20,963 nt of DNA from an uncultured Lachnospiraceae bacterium (GTDB lineage: Bacteria > Bacillota > Clostridia > Lachnospirales > Lachnospiraceae): NCBI GenBank assembly GCA_947623185.1, contig CANQGL010000041.1, positions 1 through 20,963 of the forward strand, in the 5' to 3' direction. How positions within the stretch are numbered: the stretch's first letter is position 1; the number at the start of each line of letters is the position of its first letter. Below are positions 6,212 through 20,963 of the stretch, in pieces. The notes under the pieces were generated by a model. It was not told the origin of the DNA, searched no databases, and saw nothing but the letters and a program-made list of their open reading frames with translations. A program made the position numbers and the translations under genes.

Positions 6212-6319
6212 CCATAATTTTTCTTATCCTGCTCCGGGGGATTTTCGCGCCTGTTCCCGGCCGATTTTACCGGTCTTTATGCGGTTTCCGATCCCTCCGG
6301 TCTCAACTCCCGGCGCGCC

Positions 6320-7489: not shown

Positions 7490-7575
7490 AGCGCTGCCTC
7501 CTTCTATCATTCAAACCGTCGTATCTTCGTTCCGCTTTCCGGGCACCTCACTGCCCGCGGGTTTCCTCCGGTCAT

Positions 7576-8466
7576 TTAACTCTCCGACGGTTCTTTTTCG
7601 TTCATTCCGCTATCCAGGCGGTCCGCCAGTTCCGCAAACTGTTCGAGCGTCAGCGCTTCCCCGCGCACCGCCGCCGGCAGTCCCATCTCCGCAAGCGCCC
7701 CGGCGACCTGCTCTTTCGTAAGGGAAAGGTCCGCCGCGTTGCAAAGGCTGTTCTGCAGCGTCTTTCTCCGCTGGTTGAAGGACGCGCGGATCAGGCTAAA
7801 CATGTACTCCGCATTTCGCACGCTGACGGGCGGCGTCTCGTGTCTTTTCAGGCGGATCACCGCCGATCCCACGTTCGGCCGCGGGATAAAACAGTTCGGC
7901 GGTACGTTCGCCACGATCTCCGGTTTCGCGTAATACTGCACGGCCAGTGACAGCGCCCCGTAGTCCTTTGTGCCGGGGCCAGCCTGCATCCGCCCTGCGA
8001 CCTCCTTCTGCACCATGACCGTCACGCTGCCGACCGGCGCGCCGCTCTCAAACAGGCTCATGATGATCGGCGTCGTAATGTAATACGGCAGGTTCGCCAC
8101 GACCTTCAGCGGCCTCCCTCCATTATGATCCGCCGCCAGTTGATTTATGTCAACCTTAAGGATGTCGTCGTTGATGATCGTTATGTTGTCGTACTCCGCC
8201 AACGTTTCCTGCAGGATGGGGATCAGCCCGCGGTCGATCTCCACCGCGATCACATGCCCGGCCGCTTCGGCCAGATACTGCGTCATCGTTCCGATCCCCG
8301 GCCCGATCTCCAGCACGCAGTCGTCTTTTGTCAGCTCCGCGGCGGCCGTGATCTTTTCGAGCACATGCGTATCGATCAGGAAATTCTGGCCGAATTTCTT
8401 GCGGAACGAAAAATTGTATTTCTGTATGATCTCAATGGTATTCCTTGGATTTCCCAGGTTCGCCAT
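7576..8466 (-). CDS. rsmA: 16S rRNA (adenine1518/1519-N6)-dimethyltransferase
   Basis: KKFGQNFLIDTHVLEKI...VLEIGPGIGTMTQYL...VANLPYYITTPI are classic KsgA/RsmA motifs. The start MANLGN at 8466 is preceded by AGGAGG. Confidence 0.93.
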   Translation of the reverse strand: MANLGNPRNTIEIIQKYNFSFRKKFGQNFLIDTHVLEKITAAAELTKDDCVLEIGPGIGTMTQYLAEAAGHVIAVEIDRGLIPILQETLAEYDNITIINDDILKVDINQLAADHNGGRPLKVVANLPYYITTPIIMSLFESGAPVGSVTVMVQKEVAGRMQAGPGTKDYGALSLAVQYYAKPEIVANVPPNCFIPRPNVGSAVIRLKRHETPPVSVRNAEYMFSLIRASFNQRRKTLQNSLCNAADLSLTKEQVAGALAEMGLPAAVRGEALTLEQFAELADRLDSGMNEKEPSES

Positions 8467-8584
8467 CCGTACCTCCTGTCTGCATGATCCATCAATGCGG
8501 GCCGCCTGCACGAATCGTCTGCGCGCGCCGCCTTTTAAGGCTTTTGCCCGGGGCCGCTTTCACCAGCTCTATTGCAATCCGGTT

Positions 8585-9406
8585 CTATTGCAGCCGCTCA
8601 TCCAGCCGGTATAATCTTCTCGCATTCTCCGCCGTCGCCCGGATGATCTCCTCTTCCGTCATCCCTTTCAGCTGCGCCATCACCGCGACGACCGCCGGAA
8701 GATACAGCGACGAATTCCGCTTTCCGCGGTTCGGGACCGGCGTCAGGTACGGACTGTCCGTCTCCAGAACGAGCCGGTCGAGCGGAGCGTACTCCACCAC
8801 CTCGAGCAGCTTTTTGGCGTTTTTGTAGGTCAGAACGCCGCCGATCCCCAGATAGTAGCCCATATCCAGATACTCTCTGGCGATCTCGACGCCGTAGGAA
8901 AAACAGTGGATCACGCCGCCGGTCTCCCCCGCGTGTTCCGCCTTCATAATGTCAAGCGTGTCTTTCGCCGCCTCGCGGCTGTGAATGATCACCGGATAGC
9001 CGGTCTCCTTCGCGAGCGCGAGCTGGCGCACGAACCACTTTTTCTGGATCCCGCGTTCCGGCTCGTCCCAATAATAGTCGAGGCCGATCTCTCCGAGCGC
9101 GACGGTTTTCTCTTCGTTCAGCAGTTCGCGGACGCGGGAAAGCGGATCGACCGCCGCGGCACGGTTCCCATCCTCGTTTTCCAGAGTTTCAAGCTCCGCG
9201 GTCTCCGTCGGATGGACGCCGACCGCCGCGTAAATGAACGGGTACGCTTTGGCCAGAGCGACCGTCGTTTCGCAGGATGACAGGCTGGCCGCCACATTGA
9301 CGACCGTTCCGACGCCGTTTTCCGCAAAGCTCGCAAGAAGCGCATCCCGGTCGTCGTCGAACGTCTCGTCGTCGTAATGCGCGTGCGTGTCAAAAATCAG
9401 TTCCAT
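8585..9406 (-). CDS. tatD: TatD family metal-dependent hydrolase/deoxyribonuclease
   Basis: FDTHAHYDD...AVGVHP...GEIGLDYY...IHSREA...HCFSY...ETDSPYLTP is the TatD/YabD signature set. It sits in the conserved metG-tatD-rsmA arrangement of Firmicutes. Confidence 0.9.
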   Translation of the reverse strand: MELIFDTHAHYDDETFDDDRDALLASFAENGVGTVVNVAASLSSCETTVALAKAYPFIYAAVGVHPTETAELETLENEDGNRAAAVDPLSRVRELLNEEKTVALGEIGLDYYWDEPERGIQKKWFVRQLALAKETGYPVIIHSREAAKDTLDIMKAEHAGETGGVIHCFSYGVEIAREYLDMGYYLGIGGVLTYKNAKKLLEVVEYAPLDRLVLETDSPYLTPVPNRGKRNSSLYLPAVVAVMAQLKGMTEEEIIRATAENARRLYRLDERLQ

Positions 9407-9579
9407 GTTCTTTCTCCATGCTATTTGAGTTTACATAAGTCTAAGTTCGCTGAACCCGGGGCAAAGTGCCCGCGATGCCGACTGCCCGGCCGCCGCGCGC
9501 AGAGTGTACAACAGCCACACGTCCCTGCGGACGCATGGCTGTATTGATCGTTTTCCGTCGGAGCCGTTTCCGGCCGGGA

Positions 9580-11580
9580 TCAGCAGACCTCGGAGCCGGA
9601 CTTGATGTCCTTTTCCGGGCTCATTAACGCCAGATTCCCCTCGTCGTCCTCCGCGCAGAGCAACATTCCCTCGGACATCATGCCCGCCAGTTTCGCGGGC
9701 TTTAAGTTGACCGCGACCATGACCTTGCGGCCGACCATATCCTCGGGTTTGTACCATTTCTTGATGCCGCTTAGGATCTGTCTGGTCTCGCTGCCGATCT
9801 TCACCTGCGAGCAGAGCAGCTTCTTCGACTTCGGCACTTCCTCACACTTTACGATCTCGCCGATGCGGAATTCCAGCTTTGCGAAATCGTCGTACTCGAT
9901 CTCCGGCTTGTGTTCCGGAACGATCTCACCAGGCGCACTCTCGGCGGGCGCTTCGCCGTCGGCCGCACCGTCAGTATTTCCGGCCGCTTTCTCCTCCGCC
10001 GCGTGCATCGCCTCGACCTTTGCAAGCACTTCCTTGATGTCCATGCGCGCAAAGAGGATCTCCGGTTTTTCCGTTACCTTATTGCCGTCCGGATAGAGCC
10101 CGAAACGATCCATGTCGGAGAGGGCGCGCTTTTCGGTATTTAACTGCGCCAGGATCTTTTCGGAGGTCTCCGGCATGAACGAGTACAGCAGGGACGCGCC
10201 GATCGTGATCGCCTCGGTCAGGTTGTAGAGCACCGTCGCCAGACGGTCCTTCTTCGCCTCATCCTTGGCCAGCGTCCACGGCATCGTCTCGTCGATATAT
10301 TTGTTGCTGCGGCGGAAGATCCCGAAGATCTCGGTGATCGCGTCCGCGACGCGCAGCTTGTCCATCTTTTCGTCGGCCTTCTTTACGGCCTCAAGAACCG
10401 TATTCTTCAGGTCCTCGTCGAACTCCCCGCTTACGCCCTTATTCTCCACAACGCCGCCGAAATACTTGTTCGTCATCGACACGGTGCGGTTGACAAGGTT
10501 TCCGAGAATGTTCGCCAGATCGGAGTTCATGCGCTCGACCATCAGCTCCCACGAGATCACGCCGTCGTTGTCGAACGGCATCTCATGCAGCACGAAATAG
10601 CGGACCGCGTCCACGCCGAAGAAATCCACCAGCGTGTCGGCGTAGAGCACGTTGCCCCTGGATTTGCTCATCTTGCCATCGCCCTGAAGGAGCCACGGGT
10701 GTCCGAATACCTGTTTCGGAAGCGGCACGCCGAGGGCCATCAGAAAGATCGGCCAGTAGATCGTATGGAAACGGATGATGTCCTTTCCGATCAGATGGAG
10801 GTCCGCGGGCCAGTATTTCTTATACCGCTCCCCGTGGTTGCCGTCGCAGTCGTAGCCGATGCCGGTAATGTAGTTGGTGAGCGCGTCGAGCCAGACGTAG
10901 GTGACGTGCTTCGGGTCGAAGTCGACCGGGATTCCCCACTTGAACGACGTTCTCGAAACGCAGAGGTCCTGAAGGCCCGGAAGCAGGAAATTGTTCATCA
11001 TCTCGTTCTTGCGCGATACGGGTTGGATGAATTCCGGATGCGTGTTTATATGGTCGATCAAACGCTGCGCATATTTACTCATACGGAAGAAATACGCTTC
11101 TTCCTTCGCAGGCTGGAGCGGCCTTCCGCAGTCGGGACATTTTCCGTCAACCACCTGGGACGGAGTCCAGAACGACTCGCACGGCGTGCAGTAAAGGCCC
11201 TCGTACTCGCCCTTGTAGATGTCTCCCTGCTCGTAGAGCTTGCGGAAGATCTTCTGCACCTGTTTCTCGTGGTCTTCGTCCGTGGTGCGGATAAACTTGT
11301 CGTAGGAGGTGTTCATCAGATCCCAGATCCGTTTGATCTCCCCGGCGACGTTGTCGACGAATTCCTTCGGCGTGATCCCGGCCTCCTGCGCCTTTAACTC
11401 GATCTTCTGGCCGTGCTCGTCCGTTCCGGTCTGGAAGAAGACGTCATAGCCCTGTTCTCTTTTATTGCGCGCGATCGCGTCCGCAAGAACGATCTCGTAG
11501 GTGTTGCCGATATGCGGCTTGCCCGAGGTGTATGCGATCGCGGTCGTTATATAATACGGCTGACTGCACTTTTTGCACAT
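9580..11580 (-). CDS. metG: Methionine--tRNA ligase with a C-terminal tRNA-binding (Trbp111/EMAP-like) domain
   Basis: It has a HIGH-type motif (GKPHIGNTYE), a KMSKS motif (DGKMSKSRGN), a Zn knuckle (CTPCESF...CPDCGRP) and a C-terminal FAKLEFRIGEIVKCEEVPKSKKLL...VNLKPAKLAGMMSEGML OB-fold. The RBS is AGGAGG. Confidence 0.96.
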   Translation of the reverse strand: MCKKCSQPYYITTAIAYTSGKPHIGNTYEIVLADAIARNKREQGYDVFFQTGTDEHGQKIELKAQEAGITPKEFVDNVAGEIKRIWDLMNTSYDKFIRTTDEDHEKQVQKIFRKLYEQGDIYKGEYEGLYCTPCESFWTPSQVVDGKCPDCGRPLQPAKEEAYFFRMSKYAQRLIDHINTHPEFIQPVSRKNEMMNNFLLPGLQDLCVSRTSFKWGIPVDFDPKHVTYVWLDALTNYITGIGYDCDGNHGERYKKYWPADLHLIGKDIIRFHTIYWPIFLMALGVPLPKQVFGHPWLLQGDGKMSKSRGNVLYADTLVDFFGVDAVRYFVLHEMPFDNDGVISWELMVERMNSDLANILGNLVNRTVSMTNKYFGGVVENKGVSGEFDEDLKNTVLEAVKKADEKMDKLRVADAITEIFGIFRRSNKYIDETMPWTLAKDEAKKDRLATVLYNLTEAITIGASLLYSFMPETSEKILAQLNTEKRALSDMDRFGLYPDGNKVTEKPEILFARMDIKEVLAKVEAMHAAEEKAAGNTDGAADGEAPAESAPGEIVPEHKPEIEYDDFAKLEFRIGEIVKCEEVPKSKKLLCSQVKIGSETRQILSGIKKWYKPEDMVGRKVMVAVNLKPAKLAGMMSEGMLLCAEDDEGNLALMSPEKDIKSGSEVC

Positions 11581-11612
11581 TTTCGTGTCCTCCTGAATAT
11601 TCTGCTTTCTCT

Positions 11613-11641
11613 AGCCTATCCTTTTCATACCATTTTGTCAA
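11613..11641 (-). promoter_or_regulatory. Candidate sigma-70 promoter for metG
   Basis: Read on the minus strand: TTGACA (11641-11636), a 17-nt spacer, then TAGGCT (11618-11613). It lies in the 74-nt gap between the rpoN stop and the metG start. Confidence 0.4.
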
Positions 11642-11654
11642 GCACGGTCCTGCC

Positions 11655-12995
11655 TTAACCCGGCTCCCTGCGGCGGAACGCGCCGCCGATCCCCATCTCG
11701 GTCCGGTATTTTGCGACCGTCCTGCGGGACACCGAGACCCCGTCTTCCCCCAACAGGCGGGTGATCTGCTCGTCGCTGTAGGGCCGGGTCTTGTCCTCCC
11801 CGTCCACGATGGCCTTGAGCCTGGTCTTGACCGTGTTCCGGCTCACGTCCCCGTTTTCTCCGCTGTTCTTTCCCGAACTGATCCCCGACGTGAACAGATC
11901 GCGCATCAGGATGCATCCGGATGGAAACAGCAGGTATTTGTCGCGCACGGCGCGGCTCACCGTCGATTTATGGATCTCCCGCTCCTCGGCGATCTCCTCG
12001 AGCGTCATCGGCTTTAACGGCTCGCGGCCGAGGAAAAAGCCCTCCTGGCGTTTCACGATGCTCACCGTGATCCCCTCGAGCGTCTGCCGTCTCTGCTCGA
12101 CGGCGCCTGTAATAAAGCGGGCGCGTTTCAGCTTTTCCTCAAAATACGTTTTCAGCGTCTCGTCGTGCGCCGTCTCCATCATATGGACGTAAAACTCGTT
12201 GATCCCGAGCGCTCCCGCCCATTTGTCGTTCAGGCTAACGATCCACTGTCCGTCCTGGCGCTGAACAAGAATATCCGGCACGATATACTGGGTCCGGTCG
12301 CCGCCGAATCCGTTTAACGGCCGCGGGTTCAGCTCCTTAATAATATGGATCAGTTTGCGCACGTCGATGGATGAGAGCTTCATGTCGCGGGAAATGCTGC
12401 TGATCCTTCCGTCCGCCACATCCTGCAGGTGGTTTCGGATCATCCGTTCCAGCAGCTCGCCGTTGTCGGCGTCCCGGATCTGGAGGATCAGGCATTCCTC
12501 GAGCCCCGACGCGAAGATCCCCTTCGGTTCGAGCTTTTTCAGCTCCGCGAGGACGCGCATGACCTGCGCCGGTTTTCTCCCGAGTGTTTCCGCGATCTCA
12601 TCCGGCGACATCGTGAGGTATCCGTTCTGATCCAGCGAGTGGATACAGAATTCCACGATCTCGCGCTCGTTCTCTCCCATCCTCTTTCCGGGGATCTGAT
12701 TCATGATCAGCTCCTCGACCGACTGCCCGTCGTTCTCGACCTGATAGATCTCGCCGTTTCCCTCGTCGATCGGCGAAACCTTTCCGTAAAAACGGTCATA
12801 CTCTCTGTAAACAACGGGGGCGCTTTCCTCATGCATCCCTGACGAATATTCGACAAGTGGATTCTCGATCTCCTCGTTCTGCAGAAATTCGTGCAGTTCC
12901 GAGGCCGACATACTGAGAATTTTCAGTGATTCCATCTGAACCTGCGACAAGATCTGTTTCGTCTGAACAGAAATTCCCGGTTTGATATCCAACAT
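11655..12995 (-). CDS. rpoN: RNA polymerase sigma-54 factor
   Basis: Region I is Gln/Leu-rich (QTKQILSQVQMESLKILSMSASELHEFLQNEEIENPLVE). A core-binding region follows, then a C-terminal HTH and RpoN box (SVSRRTVAKYRTEMGI). The 446-aa length is typical. Confidence 0.93.
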   Translation of the reverse strand: MLDIKPGISVQTKQILSQVQMESLKILSMSASELHEFLQNEEIENPLVEYSSGMHEESAPVVYREYDRFYGKVSPIDEGNGEIYQVENDGQSVEELIMNQIPGKRMGENEREIVEFCIHSLDQNGYLTMSPDEIAETLGRKPAQVMRVLAELKKLEPKGIFASGLEECLILQIRDADNGELLERMIRNHLQDVADGRISSISRDMKLSSIDVRKLIHIIKELNPRPLNGFGGDRTQYIVPDILVQRQDGQWIVSLNDKWAGALGINEFYVHMMETAHDETLKTYFEEKLKRARFITGAVEQRRQTLEGITVSIVKRQEGFFLGREPLKPMTLEEIAEEREIHKSTVSRAVRDKYLLFPSGCILMRDLFTSGISSGKNSGENGDVSRNTVKTRLKAIVDGEDKTRPYSDEQITRLLGEDGVSVSRRTVAKYRTEMGIGGAFRRREPG

Positions 12996-13016
12996 GATTT
13001 ACCGCCTTTCCCGTCC

Positions 13017-13046
13017 AGTATAGCACAATTCCCCCTTTTTCTGCAA
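13017..13046 (-). promoter_or_regulatory. Candidate sigma-70 promoter for rpoN (extended -10)
   Basis: Read on the minus strand: TTGCAG (13046-13041), an 18-nt spacer, then TGCTATACT (-10 TATACT at 13022-17 with an upstream TG). It lies about 20 nt upstream of the rpoN RBS. Confidence 0.45.
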
Positions 13047-13089
13047 CAGAAAAGAAAACCGCCTTAAGACCCTGCGGTCCCAAGGCGGT
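13045..13089 (-). terminator. Intrinsic terminator ending the eight-gene operon, upstream of rpoN
   Basis: The minus-strand transcript reads ACCGCCUU-gg-GACC-gcag-GGUC-uu-AAGGCGGU, an 8-bp outer plus 4-bp inner stem at 13058-13089. It is followed by UUUCUUUUCUGUU. It lies 20 nt after the crotonase stop. Confidence 0.65.
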
Positions 13090-13108
13090 GTCGCTCCTTT
13101 ATATTCGG

Positions 13109-13888
13109 TTATTTCCCCGTGTATTCGCGGTGCGGGCGCTTTTCAAGGAACGCCGTCGTCGCTTCGAGATGGTCCGCCGTCCCGAAGCAGTCCGCGAACA
13201 GCCCCGTCTCGTTCTCAAGGCTCTCGGAAAGCCCGGCCTCCATCGCGGCGTTGATCGACTTCTTCATGCAGCTCACGCCGAACGGAGCCATATCGGTGAT
13301 GATGTCGGCCAGCTCCATCGCCTTCTCCATCAGCTTCTCCGGTTCCACCACATATTCCACGAGCCCGAGCCGCAACGCTTCCTCCGCGTCGACGCTTCTG
13401 CCGGTATACAGAAGCTCCTTCGCGCGCGACGCGCCGACCGTTCTCGGCAGGAGCACGGTGCAGCCCCATCCGGGGATCCCGCCCAGCTTGATCGTCGGAA
13501 CGCCGATCTTCGCGTCGGTCGCCGCCACCGTGATATCGCTCGCAAGAATGATCTCCATTCCGCCGCCGAGCGCATAGCCGCGGACGGCGCTGATGACCGG
13601 TACCCTGTGGTTCAGGATGGAAAGGATGCACTTCTTTCCGCGGCCGGAGAACGCGCGGGCCGTCTCGGGATTCAGTTTCACTTCCTCCTTGATGTCTCCG
13701 CCTGCGGTGAACGCTCTCTCGCCCGCCGCCGTGATGATCACGCAGCGCACGTCGTGATCGTTCTCCGCCGTCTCCAGCGCTTCCGTCAGCTCATCTAACA
13801 TCTGGGAATTGAACGCGTTGAGCGCTCTCGGGCGGTTGATCGTGATGACCGCGGTGCGGTTTTTCTTTTCGTAAAGCATGAATTCCAT
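13109..13888 (-). CDS. Enoyl-CoA hydratase/isomerase (crotonase) family protein
   Basis: AVITINRPRALNAF...VIITAAGERAFTAGGDIKE...AVRGYALGGGMEIILASD has the oxyanion-hole motifs of crotonases. The preferred start is the third Met (MEFMLYEKK), 6 nt after AGGAGA. The track start is 13894. Confidence 0.9.
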   Translation of the reverse strand: MEFMLYEKKNRTAVITINRPRALNAFNSQMLDELTEALETAENDHDVRCVIITAAGERAFTAGGDIKEEVKLNPETARAFSGRGKKCILSILNHRVPVISAVRGYALGGGMEIILASDITVAATDAKIGVPTIKLGGIPGWGCTVLLPRTVGASRAKELLYTGRSVDAEEALRLGLVEYVVEPEKLMEKAMELADIITDMAPFGVSCMKKSINAAMEAGLSESLENETGLFADCFGTADHLEATTAFLEKRPHREYTGK

Positions 13889-13938
13889 AATCATTCTCCT
13901 CTTTTCATAATTGTATTATCCACGGCGCGGATACGCCG

Positions 13939-15414
13939 TTACTGATCATCCGGCAGATCTTTGTAGATCGTCTTTCCCGCTTCGTTCTTCGGGATCTTTT
14001 CGATCGGGAGGACCCGGATCCCCCGCGGGTGGATCCCTGTCTTTTCGGACAGCCACGCCGCCGCCCGCTCGCAGAAGTCTTCGTCGGCCCCGGCCGCGTA
14101 GATCCTCATGGCGTCGTCCTTTCCGGTACAGGCCACGTCGATCTCCCCGAAACCGGCCTTGAGCATCTGCTCGATCTCATCCATGTTGACGCGCTTTCCG
14201 AACATCTTCAGGAACCGCTTTTTGCGGCCGGTAATATAATAGAAGCCTTCCGCGTCGCGTTTCGCCATGTCGCCGGTGAAAAGGATTCCTCCGCGTTCGT
14301 CGCCCTTTGAAAGATCCGCGCGGCAGGCCGCGTAGCCCATCGTGACGTTTTCTCCCTCGTAGACCAGCTCGCCGACCGTATCGGCCTCCAGGATCTCCGT
14401 CTTTTCGTCCTCCATCAGGCGGAACCGTCCGCCCGGGATCGCGATCCCCATGCTGCCGCATTTTCTGAGCGCGTCCTTTGCGGGCAGATAGCCCATGCGG
14501 GCGGTCGCCTCGGTCTGGCCGTACATGACGATAAACCGCCGTCCGGTCGCCTGCGCGTATTCCGCGAATTTCTTATGGAGCGCCGGGGACAGCTTTCCGC
14601 CCGCCTGCGTCATGGTGCGCAGCGAAGGCAGATCCATGCCGAAAAACGACAACCGGTTCAGCATCTCGTAGGTATACGGCACGCCCGCGATCGATGTGGC
14701 TCCTTCCTTCCGGAAGAAGTCCCAGAACTCCCGCTCGAACAGTGTATGTTTCGTCAGGAGGACCGTCGCACCGGCCAGTATGTGGCTGTTGATGACCGAC
14801 AGCCCATAGGTATAGTTCATCGGGAGCGTGGTGATCGGCCGCTCCGTCTCGTCAAGTTCAAGATATTCCGCGATCGCCGCCGCGTTTGACTGGATATTCC
14901 GCCTGCTCTGGCGGACCAGTTTCGGGCTGCCGGTGCTGCCGGAGGTCGTAAGCAGAAGCGCCAGCTCGCTGTTTAAGCCGTCTGCAGCGGCATCGTGTGC
15001 CGCCTCCGAGCGAAAGATCCGATAGCCGAACCGCTCCGTCTCTTCCGATGCGACGGGCGCGGCTTCCTCCGCCGGGCCATGCTCCCCCTCGCCGCCTCTC
15101 CCGCACATCCGCTCCTCCATATCCGCGGGGAACGCGAGGTATTCGGGCCGGTAGGTCCCGATCAGACCGGCCAGCAAATGTCTGTCCAGGTTCCGCTCCA
15201 GAAGTAACGGCACCACGTTTCTCCGCAAGCAGGTCAGATACAGGGCGACCGCTCCGATGCTGTTCTCACAGAGCAGGAACATTAACGTCCCGGGCCGCAA
15301 AAGCCCGGAGACCGATTCGTAAAACCGTTCAAATTCGCCGTAGGTGAGCCGTCCTCCGCCGTCTTCGACTAACATCGTCCGGCTGCTTTTCGACGGGTCC
15401 GTATCGTAAAACAC
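13939..15414 (-). CDS. ANL-superfamily adenylate-forming enzyme (acyl-CoA/acyl-carrier-protein ligase-like)
   Basis: Core motifs are LLLTTSGSTGSPK (A3), MYGQTE (A5), FTGD (A7), GRKKRFLKMFGKRV (A8) and PKNEAGK (A10). The GTG start at 15414 lies 7 nt after AAAGGAGG. An acidic/Gly-rich insertion (about residues 100-150) precedes A3. Confidence 0.88.
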   Translation of the reverse strand: MFYDTDPSKSSRTMLVEDGGGRLTYGEFERFYESVSGLLRPGTLMFLLCENSIGAVALYLTCLRRNVVPLLLERNLDRHLLAGLIGTYRPEYLAFPADMEERMCGRGGEGEHGPAEEAAPVASEETERFGYRIFRSEAAHDAAADGLNSELALLLTTSGSTGSPKLVRQSRRNIQSNAAAIAEYLELDETERPITTLPMNYTYGLSVINSHILAGATVLLTKHTLFEREFWDFFRKEGATSIAGVPYTYEMLNRLSFFGMDLPSLRTMTQAGGKLSPALHKKFAEYAQATGRRFIVMYGQTEATARMGYLPAKDALRKCGSMGIAIPGGRFRLMEDEKTEILEADTVGELVYEGENVTMGYAACRADLSKGDERGGILFTGDMAKRDAEGFYYITGRKKRFLKMFGKRVNMDEIEQMLKAGFGEIDVACTGKDDAMRIYAAGADEDFCERAAAWLSEKTGIHPRGIRVLPIEKIPKNEAGKTIYKDLPDDQ

Positions 15415-15429
15415 AGGATCCCCTCCTTT

Positions 15430-16638
15430 TCATGTCAAGGTCCGTGAAAGTTCTGCGATCATATCTTTTCCATCCCAGACCGGATCCATCCGGAGCGCCT
15501 GTCCCACAGGCACGACGCGGTGAACGCCTTTCAGCCTGTGGCGCAGGACCAGCTCCCGAAGGTCGGCTTCCCGAATGCCGAAGCAGGTGACGGACTGCGT
15601 CTTTTCCGACACCGCCTCCGTCCATTCGTCGCCGTTTTGCATGTGATATTCCAAAAAGCTTCCGAACTGCATCCGGTTTTCAGAAGCGATTTTTGGGACA
15701 TCGCTGCATTCCAGCACATACAGGCGGTTGCTCAGGCGCCTGATGCGCCGGAGGTTCGCACCGAACCCCATGCACTCCCAGAGTGCACCGTATTTTTGAC
15801 TGACTTTTATCTCTGAAAGCGCATAGCGCTTCGATGCCTCAAAAACGGCGTTCCAGAACCGATCCGCGGCCTCCTGTCCGGTCCGCTCATCCGGCTCCCG
15901 CCAGAATACCGCTTTCGGACAGGAGCAGGCATTCTGGTCCATCGCGTAGGTATCGTTGTAGAACCGGACCGCGAGCAAGCCGAGTTCTTCTTCGGAAAGC
16001 GCCAGGACCGCTTCGGCGTCAAGCACCGCCAGCGAATTGCGGTCCGGGAACACCAGCTCGACGGCGGACGGTTTCAGCGGTACGGCCCGTATCCTTGAAA
16101 CGGTCTCGTCGCCGCCCCAGATGATCCGCGCGTCGCATTCCGCGCTGAAACGTTCCGTCAGGTCCGTCCTCCCGCTGTCGTAGGAGATGATCGAGACCCG
16201 GTTTTGCATCCCGGCGAACCGCTCCTCGTTAAGCAGGCCGCCCAGCAGGCCGCAGAGAAGTTCCCCTTCCCGGGTCCGGACGCGCTCCGAGACCCTCACG
16301 CGGCAGGTATTTCCCGCCAGAAGACCGATCGCGCAGGTATAGACGAACATCAGCGGGACGTTCGCGGGCGCGATGTGGAAGCTCTGCCCAAGTCCGATAT
16401 TGCCCGGCCGGTCGTATTTTTCCTTCAGTTCCATCAGGTGCGCGCGCCGAAGCCAGAAGCCCAGCGCCCGGACTTCCTCGCCGGCCTCGTTCCGCGGCAG
16501 TCTGCGGATCGATTCCGCAAGCGCCGAGAGCAGGTCGAGCACGGGTTCGGAAAAGGTGATCTCCGGCCTGTCATCCGTTTCAAACGCTCCCGCAAGAAGC
16601 GTGATCCCTTCCGGGATCCGGTCGCATTCAGCCTTCAT
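15430..16638 (-). CDS. LuxC-like acyl-CoA (acyl-thioester) reductase family protein
   Basis: At 402 aa, FHIAPANVPLMFVYTCAIGLLAGN...RVS and the putative catalytic-Cys segment YAMDQNACSCPKAVFW resemble the LuxC/aldehyde-dehydrogenase-like reductase family. The start overlaps the preceding gene by 11 nt. The assignment is by eye and needs an HMM check. Confidence 0.72.
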   Translation of the reverse strand: MKAECDRIPEGITLLAGAFETDDRPEITFSEPVLDLLSALAESIRRLPRNEAGEEVRALGFWLRRAHLMELKEKYDRPGNIGLGQSFHIAPANVPLMFVYTCAIGLLAGNTCRVRVSERVRTREGELLCGLLGGLLNEERFAGMQNRVSIISYDSGRTDLTERFSAECDARIIWGGDETVSRIRAVPLKPSAVELVFPDRNSLAVLDAEAVLALSEEELGLLAVRFYNDTYAMDQNACSCPKAVFWREPDERTGQEAADRFWNAVFEASKRYALSEIKVSQKYGALWECMGFGANLRRIRRLSNRLYVLECSDVPKIASENRMQFGSFLEYHMQNGDEWTEAVSEKTQSVTCFGIREADLRELVLRHRLKGVHRVVPVGQALRMDPVWDGKDMIAELSRTLT

Positions 16639-17701
16639 AGGTATCGCTGCACCCCCTGATCTCCGCTTTCGGTATCCGGCCCGTTATCGCGAAATATTTT
16701 CCCTTCCGTCCGCAGGGGCAGTCGTCCTCCCCGAGGATCATCCCCTTGTCCTCCGTCAGGATCGAATGGCCGGGATACGACCACGCCATCGGTGTGATGA
16801 CCTGGATCACGCCCTCTTTCCCCGTCTCGCAGACGGAGAAGTCCTCCATATCCCGGATCAGGATCTCCGAATAGTCGCTGACGTGCAGATGTCCGCATTC
16901 ACATTCCATATAGATGCATCCGGTCTGCTCCGCCATGCCGTAATAGTTCCTCACATCACGGATCCCGCAGACCTCAAAAAGCCCGTCCCTGAAATCTTCG
17001 GCGGAGACCGCTTCGTTCTGCAGCTTCTTCCAGCCGCCGCCGTGGATCAGAAAGCCGTTCTCCAGAGGCAGCCGGAGGCCGGATTCCTTAAGGGGCCTGT
17101 AAAAATACTTCCATATCATATAAGTAAAGCCGAACACGAGGACCGGTCCGCCGGCCGCCTTCTCAAGGAACGACCGGACCGCCTCCGTATCCAGCTCCAT
17201 ATTCTCATTTAAGGCATACTGTCGTTTTGCCCCGAAGATCGAAAAGCCGAGTATACCGGCGCCCCGCGCGGAAAACAGGTTCCTGTCGTGCAGGACGTTC
17301 GGAGAATCGACGATCAGCATCGGGATCCGCTTTTCGCCGATGTAGCTGCTGACGATCCGCTGTAAAGTCCTCTGCTGCCATTCCGCCGTCTTCCGGTCCA
17401 GAAAGATCCTTGACGGCTGCTGCCCGGTCGTCCCGGAGGATGTCATGGTCTTGAACACTTCCTCCGCGGGCACGCTGCAGAGCTCCGCCTTCTTAAACAA
17501 AGAGACCGGCACCATCGGGACCGTTTCCGGGCTGCGCCGCATCCCGCGCCTGTCTCCCAGTAGCTCGCAGCAGCGGTCATACGGAGCGCAGCATTCCCTG
17601 TGCCGGTCAGTCAGATCGCTCAGAAGTTCGCTGTAAACCTCCCGTTTCTCCGCCGAGCCGAGTTCATATGGGCCGCGCTGTAAAAGTTCGTCATAAGTCA
17701 T
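16628..17701 (-). CDS. LuxE-like acyl-protein synthetase (adenylating, PaaK/LuxE family)
   Basis: At 357 aa, FKTMTSSGTTGQQPSRIFLD (the P-loop-like ANL motif as found in LuxE), HGGGWKKL, YYGMAEQ and the C-terminal GRIPKAEIRGCSD are characteristic of the LuxE family. There are 11-nt overlaps with both neighbours. Confidence 0.78.
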   Translation of the reverse strand: MTYDELLQRGPYELGSAEKREVYSELLSDLTDRHRECCAPYDRCCELLGDRRGMRRSPETVPMVPVSLFKKAELCSVPAEEVFKTMTSSGTTGQQPSRIFLDRKTAEWQQRTLQRIVSSYIGEKRIPMLIVDSPNVLHDRNLFSARGAGILGFSIFGAKRQYALNENMELDTEAVRSFLEKAAGGPVLVFGFTYMIWKYFYRPLKESGLRLPLENGFLIHGGGWKKLQNEAVSAEDFRDGLFEVCGIRDVRNYYGMAEQTGCIYMECECGHLHVSDYSEILIRDMEDFSVCETGKEGVIQVITPMAWSYPGHSILTEDKGMILGEDDCPCGRKGKYFAITGRIPKAEIRGCSDTYEG

Positions 17702-18377
17702 GGCGGATCCTCACTTCCTCATCCATCCGATACGGCTCTCCGTGTCCCGGCAGGATCCACATCCCGTCCGGGATCGTGCGAAGCCACGGTTTCGCGTACC
17801 GCTCGTACTCCTCCTCGCTCCCTCCGGGCAGCCGGGTCAAAACCCTGTCGCCGGGAAGCAGATAGTCGCCGACAAACAGCAGATCGCCGAAGCGGATCAC
17901 GCTGCTGCCGTGCGTATGTCCGGGCAGCGAGACAAATTCCAGCAGGCCGTCCGCAAACGGGACCGCCATGCTGTCTCCGAACTGCAGATCCGGCGGATCG
18001 CAGGTAAACGGTCTGTAATGGACAAAAGTCTTTTCACCGCTCTTATAATAAAGAAACGTTTCCATCAGACGCGACATGTTCTCCTTGGCGCTCTGCATCC
18101 CGCGGGCGCACGCGCTGCTTCCGATCACGACCGTGCGGTACCGCTCCCGCAGAGCGTTGAGCCCGCCGATATGGTCGCAGTGCTCGTGCGTCAGAAGGAC
18201 CACGTCCGGAGTCATGTTGCGTTTTTGCAACGCCTCTTCCAGCAGTTCAAAATTATTGGGATCAATCACCGCCAGACGGCCTTCCCGCACCAGCAAATAG
18301 CAGTTGCTGTCCGTCACCGGGTCCACGATCCTCGCCGGAAAAAGTCCGTTTTCCATGTCCTCAGATCTCGACGCCAT
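17691..18377 (-). CDS. Metallo-beta-lactamase-fold hydrolase (glyoxalase II-like; possible thioesterase)
   Basis: NCYLLVREGRLAVIDP...VLLTHEHCDHIGGL (HxHxDH) plus downstream His/Asp ligands (LPGHTHGS, VGDYL, LPGHG). The start is ambiguous. The ATG at 18377 overlaps the ACP gene by 17 nt. The alternative ATG at 18356 lies 4 nt after the ACP stop. Confidence 0.85.
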   Translation of the reverse strand: MASRSEDMENGLFPARIVDPVTDSNCYLLVREGRLAVIDPNNFELLEEALQKRNMTPDVVLLTHEHCDHIGGLNALRERYRTVVIGSSACARGMQSAKENMSRLMETFLYYKSGEKTFVHYRPFTCDPPDLQFGDSMAVPFADGLLEFVSLPGHTHGSSVIRFGDLLFVGDYLLPGDRVLTRLPGGSEEEYERYAKPWLRTIPDGMWILPGHGEPYRMDEEVRIRHDL

Positions 18378-18597
18378 AACGTCTTAAAACTTCTTTTCCC
18401 TTCTCGTAGGACGTAAAGTCCAGAACATCCTGCGTCTCGATGCGGATATCGAAGGTCTCCTCCAGCTCTCCCATCAGATCCATATGGCCGATGGAATCCC
18501 AGAGCGCGATCCCGCGGTATTTAAGCGCCGGCAGCTCTTCATCGGTCTTGCGGAACATTCCGCGGAAGATCTTGTTATATTTTTCCAGGTTCGTCAT
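18361..18597 (-). CDS. Acyl carrier protein (stand-alone, 78 aa)
   Basis: It is a four-helix-sized protein with the phosphopantetheine attachment motif WDSIGHMDLMGELEETF (the DS(I/L) serine). It sits between dehydratase and adenylating-enzyme genes. Confidence 0.8.
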   Translation of the reverse strand: MTNLEKYNKIFRGMFRKTDEELPALKYRGIALWDSIGHMDLMGELEETFDIRIETQDVLDFTSYEKGKEVLRRYGVEI

Positions 18598-18630
18598 ATC
18601 ATTCCAACTCCTTTTTCTGTTTATGTTTCT

Positions 18631-19437
18631 TTATTCCCAGTATCCGGCCGCCTCGGGAAGCTCCGCGGTCTCCTGCGGATTCTCGACCGTAAACAGTTCC
18701 TTCGGCATCAGCTGCCGGCATTTGGCGGCCGATACGACCTCTCCGTTCTGATTGACGCAGATCCCGTAAAACGTCCCGACATACTGGTCCTTCCCCTCGC
18801 GGCAGGCCGAAAGCATGATCTTAGCCGTGACCATATCGCCGTAAAACACCGGTTTCAGGAAACGGATCTGTTCCTCGATCAGAACGGTCCCCTCTCCGGG
18901 CAGCTTCGTTCCCATCGCGGTCGAGATCAGGCTCGCCGCCAGCACCCCGTGGACCACGGGGCGTCCGTAAACTGACCGCTTCGCAAATTCCGCATCCGTA
19001 TGCAGGCGGCTCGTGTCTCCGGTCAGCGCGGCAAAGCGGTCCACGTCGTCCTTAAAGAACGTCTTCGTGTATTCCGCGGTATCGCCCACGCGGAGCGTCC
19101 GTTTCTCCGGTCCGTTTTCCGTCGCCGCACCGTCCTGTTGCAGATCTGAAACAGAGCTCTCCGCAGCTTCTTTTTCGCGCTCCTCACGCAGATAGGTATG
19201 CACCTGCACGAAGCTGCGCTCGGTCGGCAGCACGAAAATGCGCTTGGTCGCGATCAGACCCTCCGTCGACGCGCAGGCGCGCATACAGCCGCAAGCCACG
19301 ATCCAGACGTCGCAGGTATTCCCCTCCGCCGCCGTGCGGTAAGTATGTTCCGGAAACTTTTCCTTGAGCAAATTGACCTGCCGGCCGCGGTTATATACGG
19401 AATTGCACCCGCCGCAATATTTCACACCGATTATCAT
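18631..19437 (-). CDS. Fusion protein: N-terminal six-cysteine domain plus C-terminal MaoC-like (R)-specific enoyl-thioester hydratase (hot-dog fold)
   Basis: The N-terminal 60 aa carry Cys at residues 8, 11, 42, 49, 51 and 55 (YCGGCN...TCDVWIVACGCMRAC). An acidic linker follows. The MaoC core is LRVGDTAEY...FAALTGDTSRLHTDAEFAKRSVYGRPVVHGVLAASLIS...LPGEGTVLIEEQIRFLKPVFYGDMV. The RBS AGGAGA lies 5 nt before the ATG. Confidence 0.85.
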   Translation of the reverse strand: MIIGVKYCGGCNSVYNRGRQVNLLKEKFPEHTYRTAAEGNTCDVWIVACGCMRACASTEGLIATKRIFVLPTERSFVQVHTYLREEREKEAAESSVSDLQQDGAATENGPEKRTLRVGDTAEYTKTFFKDDVDRFAALTGDTSRLHTDAEFAKRSVYGRPVVHGVLAASLISTAMGTKLPGEGTVLIEEQIRFLKPVFYGDMVTAKIMLSACREGKDQYVGTFYGICVNQNGEVVSAAKCRQLMPKELFTVENPQETAELPEAAGYWE

Positions 19438-19446
19438 ACGGATCTC

Positions 19447-19740
19447 CTATACCTGATGGCTCAAAAGCTTTTTCGCAAAATCAAGGATCTCCGGGTCCAT
19501 TTCATTGACAAGCACCACGTCCTTGATTTCAGGGATCTCATCCATTAAGGGCTTTCCGATCAGCTCTTCCGTCGTTACCAGCGCGGAGGGACATCCCGCG
19601 CAGTGCCCGGTAAGCCGGATCTTGAGGGCCCCGTCCTCAAACGAGAGGATCTCGACATCCCCCTCGTGTTCCATCAGGGATGGACGCACCTTTTCTTCCA
19701 TGACCGTTTTGATCCTCTGCAGCAGTTCTTCGTTCATCAT
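19447..19740 (-). CDS. Nfu/NifU C-terminal-domain Fe-S cluster carrier protein
   Basis: LLQRIKTVMEEKVRPSLMEHEGDVEILSFEDGALKIRLTGHCAGCPSALVTTEELI has the CxxC Nfu signature. The track ORF begins at a TTG (19767). The ATG-ATG pair at 19740/19737, following AAAGGAG, is preferred. Confidence 0.85.
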   Translation of the reverse strand: MMNEELLQRIKTVMEEKVRPSLMEHEGDVEILSFEDGALKIRLTGHCAGCPSALVTTEELIGKPLMDEIPEIKDVVLVNEMDPEILDFAKKLLSHQV

Positions 19741-19789
19741 CCCGCTCCTTTCTGTCATTACGGACAATCATCCTCTACCATATTATAAA

Positions 19790-19804
19790 GCAATTTCCGT
19801 GCCA
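19790..19804 (-). promoter_or_regulatory. Sigma-54 (-24/-12) promoter driving the eight-gene minus-strand operon
   Basis: The minus strand reads TTTGGCACGGAAATTGCTTT, i.e. TGGCAC-N5-TTGC with the exact consensus spacing. It lies about 50 nt upstream of the Nfu start codon. Confidence 0.78.
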
Positions 19805-19928
19805 AAGGAAGCAGAACTGAAACAAACTTTTCCTTTTTCGCCCGGCTTACCGCATTTATGCCGTTTTTACGCGGTCTTTTCCGGAAACGAACCGATTTCG
19901 AAACACGTCGGTCCGGGGAAATCCGTGC

Positions 19929-19969
19929 CGTTTTTGCAACAAAATGTCTTTTGTTTCGTTTTTGCAACA
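19929..19969. promoter_or_regulatory. Direct repeat CGTTTTTGCAACA x2 (candidate enhancer/UAS for a sigma-54 activator)
   Basis: Identical 13-mers sit at 19929-19941 and 19957-19969 (28-bp period), flanking a 7-bp inverted repeat AACAAAA-tgtc-TTTTGTT (19939-19956). Degenerate copies are CCGTTTTTACGC (19861-) and CCGTTTTACAA (19981-). They lie about 140-205 bp from each sigma-54 promoter. Confidence 0.4.
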
Positions 19970-20132
19970 TATTTTGGGCTCCGTTTTACAATTTTTATAC
20001 CTGAAACCTTTGTTCAAAAAAAATATAAAAAAATTAATGTTTCCTGAAAATGCCCGATTTCCTTACAATTTTCGAGTCTGGCTTTTCAAAAATTTTATCC
20101 TTTCGTTAAAAAGTTTCCAGTTTTTTTATTTT

Positions 20133-20147
20133 TGGCACGCAAATTGC
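20133..20147 (+). promoter_or_regulatory. Sigma-54 (-24/-12) promoter driving abfD
   Basis: The plus strand reads TTTGGCACGCAAATTGCTAT, i.e. TGGCAC-N5-TTGC. The -12 element ends 55 nt before the abfD ATG. The RBS AAAGGAAG lies at about 20186-20193. Confidence 0.8.
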
Positions 20148-20201
20148 TATTAATAAATGATAGCAGTAAAAATATCTTTAAAAGAAAGGAAGTACAAAAC
20201 T

Positions 20202-20963
20202 ATGGCATTAATGACAGGCGAACAGTATGTTGAAAGCATGAGGAAACTGCATCTTCAGGTTTACATGTTCGGAAAGAAGGTCGAGAATCCGGTCGACGAT
20301 CCGATCCTTCGTCCCTCCCTTAACTCTGTAAAGGCCACCTATGACCTTGCTCAGATGCCGGAGTATGAAGACCTGATGACCACGACCTCCTCCCTTACCG
20401 GGAAGAAGATCAACCGCTTTGCTCACATCCACCAGAGCACCGATGACCTTATCAAGAAGGTCAAGATGCAGCGTCTTTGCGGACAGAAGACCGCGGCCTG
20501 CTTCCAGCGCTGCGTAGGTATGGACGCATTCAACGCAGTTTACAGCACGACTTATGATACCGATGAGAAGTACGGCACTCACTATCATGAGAACTTCAAG
20601 AAGTTCCTTGAGTACGTTCAGGAAAACGACCTCACCGTTGACGGCGCTATGACGGACCCGAAGGGTGACCGTTCTCTTGCTCCGCACGCACAGGCTGATC
20701 CGGATCTGTATCTGCATGTTGTTGAGAGACGTCCCGACGGTATCGTTGTCCGCGGTGCGAAAGCTCACCAGACCGGTTTCGTAAACTCTCACGAAGTCAT
20801 CGTTATGCCGACCCAGTCCATGGGCGAAGATGACAAGGATTACGCTGTTTCCTTCGCGGTTCCGACCGATGCGGAAGGCATCTTCCTGATCGTTGGCCGT
20901 CAGTCCTGCGATACCAGAAAGCTGGAAGGCAGCGAGATCGATGTCGGTAACTCCCAGTACGGC
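20202..20963 (+). CDS. abfD: 4-Hydroxybutyryl-CoA dehydratase / vinylacetyl-CoA delta-isomerase (N-terminal 254 aa; runs off the window end)
   Basis: My hand translation gives MALMTGEQYVESMRKLHLQVYMFGKKVENPVDDPILRPSLNSV...INRFAHIHQSTDDLIKKVKMQRLCGQKTAACFQRCVGMDAFNAV...DGAMTDPKGDRSLAP...GIVVRGAKAHQTG...DKDYAVSFAVP...GRQSCDTRK. This is near-collinear with Clostridium aminobutyricum AbfD as I recall it, including the CxxxC [4Fe-4S] ligand pair. It is missing from the ORF track because it is truncated. Confidence 0.9.
   Translation, partial: MALMTGEQYVESMRKLHLQVYMFGKKVENPVDDPILRPSLNSVKATYDLAQMPEYEDLMTTTSSLTGKKINRFAHIHQSTDDLIKKVKMQRLCGQKTAACFQRCVGMDAFNAVYSTTYDTDEKYGTHYHENFKKFLEYVQENDLTVDGAMTDPKGDRSLAPHAQADPDLYLHVVERRPDGIVVRGAKAHQTGFVNSHEVIVMPTQSMGEDDKDYAVSFAVPTDAEGIFLIVGRQSCDTRKLEGSEIDVGNSQYG

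Follow-up and report, generated by a model that had tools for sequence, protein, structure and literature searches.

What would an uncultured Lachnospiraceae bacterium make with an operon that joins an acyl carrier protein (ACP) to LuxE- and LuxC-like enzymes, an adenylating ligase of the ANL family, two hydratases, a metallo-beta-lactamase (MBL)-fold hydrolase, and an Fe-S carrier? The question is raised by positions 1 to 20,963 of contig CANQGL010000041.1 (assembly GCA_947623185.1), referred to here as the window. A preliminary description, made from the sequence alone, had taken the eight genes for a self-contained unit under sigma-54 control that matched no recognized pathway. The genomic coupling of the operon to 4-hydroxybutyrate genes, above all abfD, which encodes 4-hydroxybutyryl-coenzyme A (CoA) dehydratase, proved to be well supported. 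On the interpretation that we prefer, which is tentative and plausible rather than probable, the operon belongs, as one of two arms, to a divergent XanR-type regulon in which an ACP-tethered C4 dicarboxylate would be reduced to 4-hydroxybutyrate, feeding the CoA-transferase AbfT and AbfD.

The tight packing of the eight genes reported in the preliminary description stands, but its view of them as a free-standing unit does not, since the operon shares its control region with the promoter of abfD. The AbfD fragment encoded in the window is 91% identical to the full-length AbfD of the related locus L001, which in turn matches the crystal structure of the Clostridium aminobutyricum enzyme (1U8V) at 4.4e-249. 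In related loci, this divergent arm continues from abfD to a 4-hydroxybutyrate CoA-transferase gene (4.3e-166 against the 4-hydroxybutyrate CoA-transferases, 3EH7), a membrane protein gene, and a gene for an enhancer-binding protein of the PAS/AAA+ type. Inside the window itself there were no genes for a CoA-transferase, a 4-hydroxybutyrate dehydrogenase, or a succinate-semialdehyde dehydrogenase.

The two arms face apart from a pair of -24/-12 promoters, both reading TGGCAC-N5-TTGCT. These are the only two exact matches to TGGCAC-N5-TTGCW in the window, and 100 shuffles of the window gave none; the same divergent pair is kept in nine related loci (Lachnospiraceae, Clostridium cadaveris, and Treponema vincentii). 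Sigma-54 control of the operon, which the preliminary description had proposed from a consensus promoter upstream of it, is thus a well-supported prediction. A sigma-70 promoter could also be read here (TTGGCA-17-TATGGT, a 9/12 match); it was rejected as the main promoter because the match is weak and merely overlaps the conserved -24/-12 element.

Two 16-mers in the same intergenic region resemble the upstream activating sequence (UAS) GTTGCA-N4-TGCAAC that Nie et al. (2019, BMC Genomics 20:565, PMC6615313, Table S3) assigned to XanR, an enhancer-binding protein; they have two or three mismatches in the second half-site. Perfect versions at 28-bp spacing were found in loci L050, L078, L011, and L005/6, and the spacing of the paired sites is 28 bp in L001, L005, L006, L008, and L050 and 30 to 31 bp in L003 and L007. 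A gene for an enhancer-binding protein with PAS and Sigma54_activat domains is present in related loci, after abfD-abfT-transporter in L001, L005, L006, and L008 and after the ANL gene in L003. It is not within the window, whose end falls inside abfD, and in this genome it presumably sits just beyond that edge. In Clostridium beijerinckii, C. kluyveri, and C. tyrobutyricum, the XanR regulon consists of abfD-nifU-hyp-ach-golB and acp-caiC-luxEC; it was defined by comparative genomics only, with no biochemistry, and labeled “Butyrate/Butanol synthesis” (PMC6615313). Sigma-54 control of the gene set had therefore already been predicted with this published regulon, and the earlier statement that the operon matches no pathway was too strong, as the set is consistently linked to the branch of butyrate synthesis that runs through 4-hydroxybutyrate and succinate.

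How general this coupling is could be seen from the relatives of the locus. Proteins related to the LuxE-like enzyme number in the thousands (a scan with one genome taken from each species gave at least 587 genomes that encode one), and the best 80 loci were taken. Together with L001, and with the window and three duplicate loci excluded, they made 81 nonredundant related loci, which were compared by tblastn with the window proteins and by de novo clustering of open reading frames (ORFs) with Pfam annotation. The closest relatives of the window LuxE are 74 to 80% identical to it. The gene-neighborhood survey that the preliminary description had suggested was run on these loci, and they split into class A (n = 29), beside catabolic abfD genes, and class B (n = 52), beside glycan genes. 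Both abfD and a CoA-transferase gene occurred within 10 kb in 26 of the 29 class-A loci and in none of the 52 of class B. Within class A, an ACP gene always adjoined luxE, LuxC and ANL were each present in 28 loci, and Nfu was present in 25; ACPs adjoining LuxE and 45 to 91% identical to that of the window were found in 29/29 and 42/52 loci of the two classes. MBL genes, always within the module, were less constant (17/29 and 14/52), as was the crotonase (11/29 class-A loci). What had been presented as an eight-gene set therefore comes down to a conserved core of Nfu, the cysteine-rich MaoC protein (Cys-MaoC), ACP, LuxE, LuxC, and ANL. Genes linked in class-A loci include an iron-containing alcohol dehydrogenase (Fe-ADH; 15 loci), a SucD-like acylating aldehyde dehydrogenase (10 loci), thiolase, Hbd, Bcd, and Etf. 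Since the two dehydrogenases score below the NCBIfam cutoffs, their specificity as 4-hydroxybutyrate dehydrogenase (4HbD) and SucD is only putative.

Two layouts were recognized within class A. In the sigma-54 layout, carried by the window, its nearest relatives, Anaerostipes, C. cadaveris, and T. vincentii, paired UAS sites lie between two -24/-12 promoters; abfD, abfT, the membrane protein gene, and the enhancer-binding protein gene lead away on one side, and nfu, Cys-maoC, acp, mbl, luxE, luxC, the ANL gene, and in some cases ech lead away on the other. The 12 loci of this layout all have the exact promoter motif, 24 times in total (1.02 per 10 kb), and the density is 20 to 30 times lower in the other class-A loci (0.03) and in class B (0.05). 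In the LysR layout (Lacrimispora, Hungatella, and Clostridium aerotolerans), the module is flanked on one side by sucD-like, Fe-ADH, abfD, and two CoA-transferase genes and on the other by thl-crt-hbd, a lactate racemase-like gene, an FAD oxidase gene, bcd, and etf.

Some individual loci deserve a mention. On the chromosome of T. vincentii OMZ 806 (L036, about 3900 to 11100), a divergent sigma-54 pair separates abfD, Fe-ADH, and membrane-protein genes from a membrane protein gene, nfu, Cys-maoC, abfT, acp, mbl, and luxE, and the enhancer-like sites are of a different type (GGTTCATTTATGAACC). L005 (CAVIYT010000175.1), which bears the label Paludibacteraceae, is very similar in gene order and sequence to Clostridium sp. 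AM30-24 (L006) and is probably a misbinned contig in the metagenome-assembled genome that contains it. UAS-like 16-mers were also seen inside genes. In the window, the operon promoter is followed 1.57 kb downstream by GTTGCAAAAACGCAAC, which lies within the coding sequence of MBL and is closer to the motif than both intergenic sites; similar 16-mers stand at the same MBL codons in L005 and L007 and 15 nt shifted in L001, and a further one lies within luxE (+868) in L001 and L005 to L008. The background for such 16-mers was eight matches in 855 kb of class-B loci, and no internal sigma-54 promoter was found at a conserved position after the intragenic sites.

Class-B modules have the order ACP-(short-chain dehydrogenase/reductase [SDR] or MBL)-ANL-LuxE-LuxC, and their neighbors are DegT, a split transketolase, a GDP-mannose-dehydratase-like protein, beta-ketoacyl-ACP synthase III (KAS III), NeuB, PglD-like and FkbM proteins, and family 2 glycosyltransferases (GT2). 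AbfD, Nfu, and the domain with four cysteines described below were absent from all 52. Loci such as L018, L022, L056, L061, and L080 combine a split transketolase, with separate N and C halves, with an SDR, KAS III, and an Ldh/Mdh-like gene. Judging from these neighbors, the decoration would be a short hydroxy- or keto-acyl group of an unusual kind. The hosts of class B were Gastranaerophilales, gut Alphaproteobacteria, Bacteroidales, Selenomonas, Fretibacterium, and Clostridia. No sugar aminotransferase, acyltransferase, or glycosyltransferase recurred in the 29 class-A loci. Neighbor-joining trees of LuxE and LuxC set class A apart from class B, with LuxC identities of 34 to 35% between the classes and 40 to 48% within class A; between classes, LuxE is 55%, ANL 50%, and ACP about 50% identical. 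As stand-alone MaoC proteins and MBLs also occur in class-B modules, ACP, ANL, LuxE, LuxC, MaoC, and MBL make up a shared toolbox. Glycan loci with LuxCE/ACP/ANL modules, to which the preliminary description had pointed, do offer a parallel, as the 52 class-B loci show (and Aeromonas islands, see below). That description had also allowed that such gene sets might always be embedded in capsule or O-antigen loci, which we found to hold for the sister clade only.

The individual enzymes were then compared with known families (Table 1). The LuxE-like protein aligns end to end with Photobacterium phosphoreum LuxE (7XC6_E, 4.1e-18), including the cysteine of the C-terminal GCS motif, and this acyl cysteine, C351, is invariant. 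For the LuxC-like protein, a profile of 20 relatives matches LuxC (7XC6_A, 1.2e-9) with DQNAC aligned to DQQAC, and the catalytic cysteine C238 is invariant in the 20 sequences. Both proteins fall far below the NCBIfam equivalog cutoffs (64.3 bits versus 550 for LuxE and 24.5 versus 750 for LuxC) and are therefore relatives of the luminescence enzymes, not orthologues. All eight of the best solved relatives of the ANL protein are oxalate- or malonate-CoA ligases (5IE0, 2.8e-25; 3NYQ, 1.1e-23), and the nearest solved relatives of the MBL protein are glyoxalase II or hydroxyacylglutathione hydrolases (2XF4, 1.7e-10). The ACP scores 19.2 bits with PP-binding, just below the cutoff of 20.8, and retains the serine of DSIGH. 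The best NCBIfam match of the crotonase, also below cutoff, is a short-chain enoyl-CoA hydratase.

The Cys-MaoC protein has two domains. With an AlphaFold2 (AF2) model (pLDDT 92.7), Foldseek matched the MaoC domain, taken to be an (R)-specific enoyl-thioester hydratase, to Aeromonas caviae PhaJ (1IQ6) with a TM score of 0.93, a root mean square deviation of 1.3 Å, and 37% identity. The domain retains the pair D141/H146, which we take to be the PhaJ catalytic dyad. Residues 1 to 97 (19144 to 19437, minus strand) form a small alpha/beta domain annotated as PF27236 (“AF_0334”) in precomputed annotations, with four invariant cysteines, C8 and C11 in a CGGC motif and C51 and C55 in a CxxxC motif, which are probably a metal or Fe-S site. 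This N-domain had no match in the Pfam library searched and no sequence relative in the PDB, and for its predicted fold (AF2, pLDDT 81.8) the Foldseek matches, to flavodoxin- or PurE-like proteins, were all insignificant (E ≥ 0.06, TM ≤ 0.48). In abfD-linked loci it invariably forms one protein with the PhaJ-like hydratase and usually lies beside Nfu; “stand-alone” PF27236 proteins resemble truncated or frameshifted fusion proteins.

These components can be assembled into a pathway whose substrate, sequence of steps, and flux direction we infer, as we do the parts played by MBL, MaoC, and Nfu. The PAS/AAA+ activator would bind the paired UAS-like sites and turn on both the abfD arm and the carrier-protein operon. 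The ANL ligase would load a C4 dicarboxylate (most likely succinate, with malate or fumarate as alternatives) onto holo-ACP through one carboxyl; LuxE would adenylate the free carboxyl, take the acyl group onto its C-terminal cysteine, and hand it to the catalytic cysteine of LuxC, which would use NAD(P)H to convert that carboxyl into an omega-aldehyde. An alcohol dehydrogenase encoded elsewhere (an Fe-ADH gene is linked in about half of the class-A loci) would then give 4-hydroxybutyryl-ACP, and the glyoxalase II-like MBL may release or proofread the thioester. The 4-hydroxybutyrate would be converted by AbfT to the CoA ester and dehydrated by AbfD to crotonyl-CoA, while the PhaJ-like MaoC domain and the crotonase would hydrate crotonyl thioesters, and Nfu might provide Fe-S clusters to the four-cysteine domain, AbfD, or both. 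We favor this scheme because both contexts of the toolbox point to C4 omega-hydroxy acids, because the ligase is dicarboxylate-like, and because a second adenylating enzyme and a thioester reductase are present. The superposition of the modeled MaoC domain on PhaJ, a C4 to C6 enzyme, may also count for a C4 substrate. In gut metagenomes, abfD reads exceed those of other 4-aminobutyrate-pathway genes, and one distinct group of Lachnospiraceae crotonases lacks synteny with the acetyl-CoA pathway (Vital et al. 2014, PMC3994512); the abfD excess would fit genomes that have abfD and need another source of 4-hydroxybutyrate.

Several points weigh against this scheme. The proposed substrate and product are read from sequence, and at about 90 bits the ANL protein is modestly similar to dicarboxylate ligases. 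With its two adenylations, each of ATP to AMP, and its two reductions, the route would be costly for a fermenter; C. kluyveri carries out the same conversion with a CoA-transferase, SucD, and 4HbD at no ATP cost. As SucD-like aldehyde dehydrogenases and Fe-ADHs are themselves found in 10 and 15 class-A loci, the module is no simple replacement for these enzymes. The window has no alcohol dehydrogenase gene, and T. vincentii has ACP-MBL-LuxE without LuxC or ANL within 10 kb. Finally, nifU, “hyp,” and golB of Clostridium go with abfD and not with acp (PMC6615313), so that Nfu, MaoC, and MBL may work for the CoA arm instead of the ACP arm. Extending the scheme to the whole abfD-linked clade, as an unrecognized ATP-driven, carrier-protein entry into butyrate synthesis that turns succinate, or a different gut-abundant C4 dicarboxylate, into 4-hydroxybutyrate with a new four-cysteine (probably Fe-S) hydratase as partner, is a doubtful step.

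The same genes could also serve as an electron sink at the pathway's end, in which butyrate, crotonate, or 4-hydroxybutyrate would be activated as acyl-ACP or acyl-LuxE and reduced by LuxC to butanal or 4-hydroxybutanal, then by an alcohol dehydrogenase to butanol or 1,4-butanediol. By homology, LuxE and LuxC are indeed an ATP- and NADPH-dependent acid reductase, Nie et al. placed the regulon in “Butyrate/Butanol synthesis” (PMC6615313), and Fe-ADH genes are linked in 15 related loci; however, these mostly lie beside the SucD-like gene and abfD, as 4hbD would. Such a sink would leave unexplained both the constant ACP and the second, dicarboxylate-ligase-like adenylating enzyme, no report of such alcohols made via these genes was found, and we consider it unlikely. 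A biosynthetic use seems less likely again: a short hydroxyacyl-ACP (e.g., 3- or 4-hydroxybutyryl-ACP) would be passed to a sugar, lipid, protein, or small signal, with abfD/abfT and the hydratases supplying or trimming C4 units. The toolbox does occur in 52 glycan-type loci with DegT, NeuB, PglD-like, and GT2 proteins, the ACP-SDR-ANL-LuxE-LuxC order recurs in the flagellar glycosylation islands of Aeromonas, and Vibrio cholerae tetronate synthesis offers a precedent. Yet acyltransferases, aminotransferases, and glycosyltransferases are absent from the window and do not recur in class A, whose LuxE and LuxC form their own clade, and the class-A genes are coregulated with catabolic butyrate genes by a PAS-type activator or a LysR regulator.

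We regard as improbable that the genes act in salvage or quality control of the 4-hydroxybutyrate pathway, with the MBL cleaving gamma-butyrolactone or mis-acylated thiols and the hydratases and LuxCE/ACP recapturing reactive by-products such as succinic semialdehyde or vinylacetyl thioesters. 4-Hydroxybutyryl thioesters lactonize readily, lactonases are known among proteins of the MBL fold, MBL and crotonase are accessory members, and the Clostridium MBL (“golB”) is in the abfD operon. On the other hand, the nearest solved relatives of this MBL are glyoxalase II thioesterases rather than AiiA-type lactonases, MBL also adjoins ACP in glycan-type loci that lack abfD, and an ATP-driven set of four proteins would be elaborate for repair. 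Just as improbable is the proposal of the preliminary description, in which an unspecified short acyl group is tethered, hydrated or dehydrated, and then reduced or hydrolyzed by a stand-alone eight-gene unit outside any known pathway. Its family calls and its account of the packing were right, and we found no characterized pathway with this enzyme set in the searchable literature; against it stand the control region shared with abfD, the linkage of abfD/abfT in 26/29 class-A loci, the two of eight genes that are dispensable in relatives, and a regulon that had already been described. Nor did we find in the searchable literature any biochemistry of this enzyme set, anything joining AbfD with LuxE or acyl-protein synthetase, or anything on Cbei_2099-2103 and CKL_3020/3027.

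The features of the operon, its control region, and the two genes next to it are collected in Table 1.

Table 1. Features of the carrier-protein operon and its surroundings in the window
Feature	Coordinates	Strand	Evidence
Nfu/NifU C-terminal-domain Fe-S carrier, CAGC motif	19447..19767	-	Pfam NifU 7.9e-21
Cys-MaoC, two-domain protein: four-cysteine N-domain and PhaJ-like hydratase	18631..19437	-	MaoC_dehydratas 1.4e-17, residues 122-220
ACP, 78 aa, DSIGH serine	18361..18597	-	PP-binding 0.0015
MBL-fold hydrolase, HEHCDH, glyoxalase II-like, accessory	17691..18377	-	Lactamase_B 7e-21
LuxE-like acyl-protein synthetase	16628..17701	-	Pfam LuxE 6.4e-52
LuxC-like acyl-thioester reductase	15430..16638	-	Pfam LuxC 1.1e-28, residues 80-265
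ANL adenylating ligase, TTSGSTGSPK / YGQTE / GRKKRFLK	13939..15414	-	AMP-binding 1.1e-45
Crotonase-family enoyl-CoA hydratase, accessory	13109..13894	-	ECH_1 2.3e-65
Intrinsic terminator, 14-bp stem, 4-nt loop, T-run	13048..13089	-	Terminator scan
Sigma-54 -24/-12 promoter of the eight-gene operon, TGGCACGGAAATTGCT	19789..19804	-	Exact TGGCAC-N5-TTGCW match
Sigma-54 -24/-12 promoter of abfD, TGGCACGCAAATTGCT	20133..20148	+	Exact motif match; 53 nt before start codon
UAS-like site 1, GTTGCAAAAACGAAAC, resembles XanR motif GTTGCA-N4-TGCAAC	19953..19968	-	
UAS-like site 2, GTTGCAAAAACGGCAC, 28 bp start to start from site 1	19925..19940	-	
Third UAS-like 16-mer, GTTGCAAAAACGCAAC, perfect GTTGC-N6-GCAAC palindrome, within MBL coding sequence	18216..18231	-	
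abfD 5' part, 254 codons, running off the window; 4-hydroxybutyryl-CoA dehydratase/vinylacetyl-CoA isomerase	20202..20963	+	HpaB-family NCBIfam match
rpoN (sigma-54), separate gene just past the terminator	11655..12995	-	TIGR02395 3.3e-111, above cutoff; three Sigma54 Pfam domains

Most structural details of the preliminary description held. The eight tightly packed minus-strand ORFs agree with the ORF list, every motif quoted was found in the translations, and each of the eight family calls has its Pfam match (that of the ACP just under the cutoff), including the two proteins that profile searches placed in the LuxC and LuxE families. The exact promoter and the downstream terminator were found as well; the terminator stem (14 pairs, 8 of them GC, at 13058 to 13089 on the minus strand, with a T-run after it) is the sole strong one in the scanned region, 11500 to 20963. 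Equally, none of the Pfam families for acyltransferases, glycosyltransferases, ketosynthases, polyketide synthases (PKS), nonribosomal peptide synthetases (NRPS), or luciferases, all said to be missing, was present among the window proteins, and the window also lacks aminotransferase as well as alcohol dehydrogenase genes. The genes are separated by 9 nt (Nfu/MaoC), 33 nt (MaoC/ACP), 15 nt (LuxC/ANL), and 44 nt (ANL/crotonase) or overlap by 17 nt (ACP/MBL) and 11 nt (MBL/LuxE and LuxE/LuxC), the ACP/MBL overlap becoming a 4-nt gap if MBL starts at the ATG at 18356. A purine run resembling a ribosome-binding site (RBS) precedes each of the eight. For Nfu, a start at the ATG at 19740 (97 aa, RBS GAAAGGAG) looks more likely than one at the TTG at 19767.

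Elsewhere in the window, rpoN lies next to the operon; it was found within 10 kb in none of the 81 related loci, so this adjacency is particular to the present genome. The other genes are of the housekeeping kind: metG, tatD, rsmA, and those for an LprI-domain lipoprotein, a diaminopimelate (DAP) dehydrogenase, a MATE pump, and a radical-SAM protein. Over positions 1 to 2700 the GC content is 0.40 to 0.47, down from about 0.58, and this low-GC end, with an HsdM type I methylase gene (599 to 2128) and a Cro/C1-type helix-turn-helix gene (2184 to 2435), resembles the border of a restriction-modification island gained by horizontal transfer. The DAP dehydrogenase ORF (5087 to 6211, minus strand) is listed with a TTG start that adds about 46 N-terminal residues, and its true start is probably the ATG before MTIRIGIMGYGNLGRG. 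An ORF of 108 aa (9431 to 9757, minus strand) that overlaps the 3' end of metG looks spurious. Scans of the window for Rfam families and tRNAs gave no hits.

Butyrate is a key gut metabolite, and the pathway catalogue of Vital et al. (2014) counts abfD and 4Hbt and omits these conserved neighbors. The abfD-linked layout makes up about a third of the best 80 loci, including those of Anaerostipes, Flavonifractor, Lacrimispora, Hungatella, C. cadaveris, and T. vincentii. If the module makes 4-hydroxybutyrate from a C4 dicarboxylate in the proposed way, Lachnospiraceae, Oscillospiraceae, Clostridium, and Treponema would have a new version of the succinate-to-butyrate route that replaces or supplements the CoA-dependent SucD/4HbD steps, and the excess of abfD over the rest of the “4-aminobutyrate” pathway in gut metagenomes would be explained. 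If it supplies or processes 4-hydroxybutyrate at all, metagenomic predictions of the capacity to turn succinate into butyrate would need revision. Carrier-protein-based dicarboxylate reduction would also be a useful enzyme set for the production of 4-hydroxybutyrate or butanediol. Otherwise, the module would still be a widely conserved, coregulated partner of the radical enzyme AbfD. Since the same toolbox occurs in glycan loci, solving one system would probably explain the other. The regulation has already been described at the level of comparative genomics; the chemistry is relevant to gut butyrate production.

The closest known system is the XanR regulon of Clostridium. The two share abfD, nifU, ACP, ANL (“caiC”), luxE, and luxC, with sigma-54 promoters before both units, and probably also the MBL (as “golB”) and Cys-MaoC (as “hyp”). 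Sites resembling the UAS motif are in the window, and a PAS-type enhancer-binding protein is encoded in related loci. Thus, the gene content of the regulon is in the window except for the CoA-transferase (ach), which is expected past the window edge. Unlike in Clostridium, nifU, Cys-MaoC, and MBL are here in the ACP operon, to which a crotonase is added, the order is ACP-MBL-LuxE-LuxC-ANL instead of acp-caiC-luxEC, the host is Lachnospiraceae-like, and rpoN is adjacent.

With the Lux reductase (cryo-EM structure 7XC6, PMC9157457) the operon shares the C-terminal acyl-cysteine of LuxE and the catalytic cysteine of LuxC in DQxAC, and the chemistry expected by homology is that of an acid reduced to an aldehyde with ATP and NAD(P)H. 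It differs from the LuxC-LuxE(-LuxD) set of luminescence in having no LuxD and no luciferase, and its LuxC is about 75 residues shorter. Beyond the Lux system, it has a dedicated ACP, a second ligase, and hydratases, and its substrate is probably short chain, not C14. No ketosynthase, acyltransferase, or condensation domain, as in type II fatty acid synthase, PKS, or NRPS systems, was found among the window proteins. The fatty-acid-amide gene clusters of gut Clostridia were rejected as a match because their stand-alone condensation domain (OaaC) is absent here.

The core of ACP, ANL, LuxE, and LuxC is also that of glycan modules of the type of the tetronate genes of V. cholerae O1, VC0248 to VC0252 (WbeK-O/RfbK-O), and such modules often include an MBL and a MaoC-type hydratase, as here. 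Group II of the flagellar glycosylation islands of Aeromonas (PMC7874193) has the order ACP-SDR-ANL-LuxE-LuxC, which matches class B. None of the DegT, NeuB, PglD-like, glycosyltransferase, SDR, and split transketolase genes of the glycan modules is found here, whereas the glycan-type loci lack Nfu, the four-cysteine domain, abfD, and any enrichment of the sigma-54 motif, and the LuxE/LuxC lineage is separate from class B in the trees, which covered the class-A and class-B loci. Tetronate (2,4-dihydroxybutyrate) of V. cholerae O1 is the sole chemically defined product tied to a LuxE-domain/ACP/ligase set; its pathway is homology-based, with wbeL genetically required, and, like 4-hydroxybutyrate, it is a C4 omega-hydroxy acid. 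With the Cat1-SucD-4HbD-Cat2-AbfD pathway of C. kluyveri and the AbfH-AbfT-AbfD pathway of C. aminobutyricum, the locus has in common abfD and the path from a C4 acid to crotonyl-CoA. The classical succinate/4-aminobutyrate pathway, however, runs on CoA thioesters only and needs none of ACP, LuxE, LuxC, ANL, MBL, and Nfu. Set beside these systems, the operon is a known acid-reducing carrier-protein module that has been taken into butyrate metabolism together with a new four-cysteine hydratase and Nfu.

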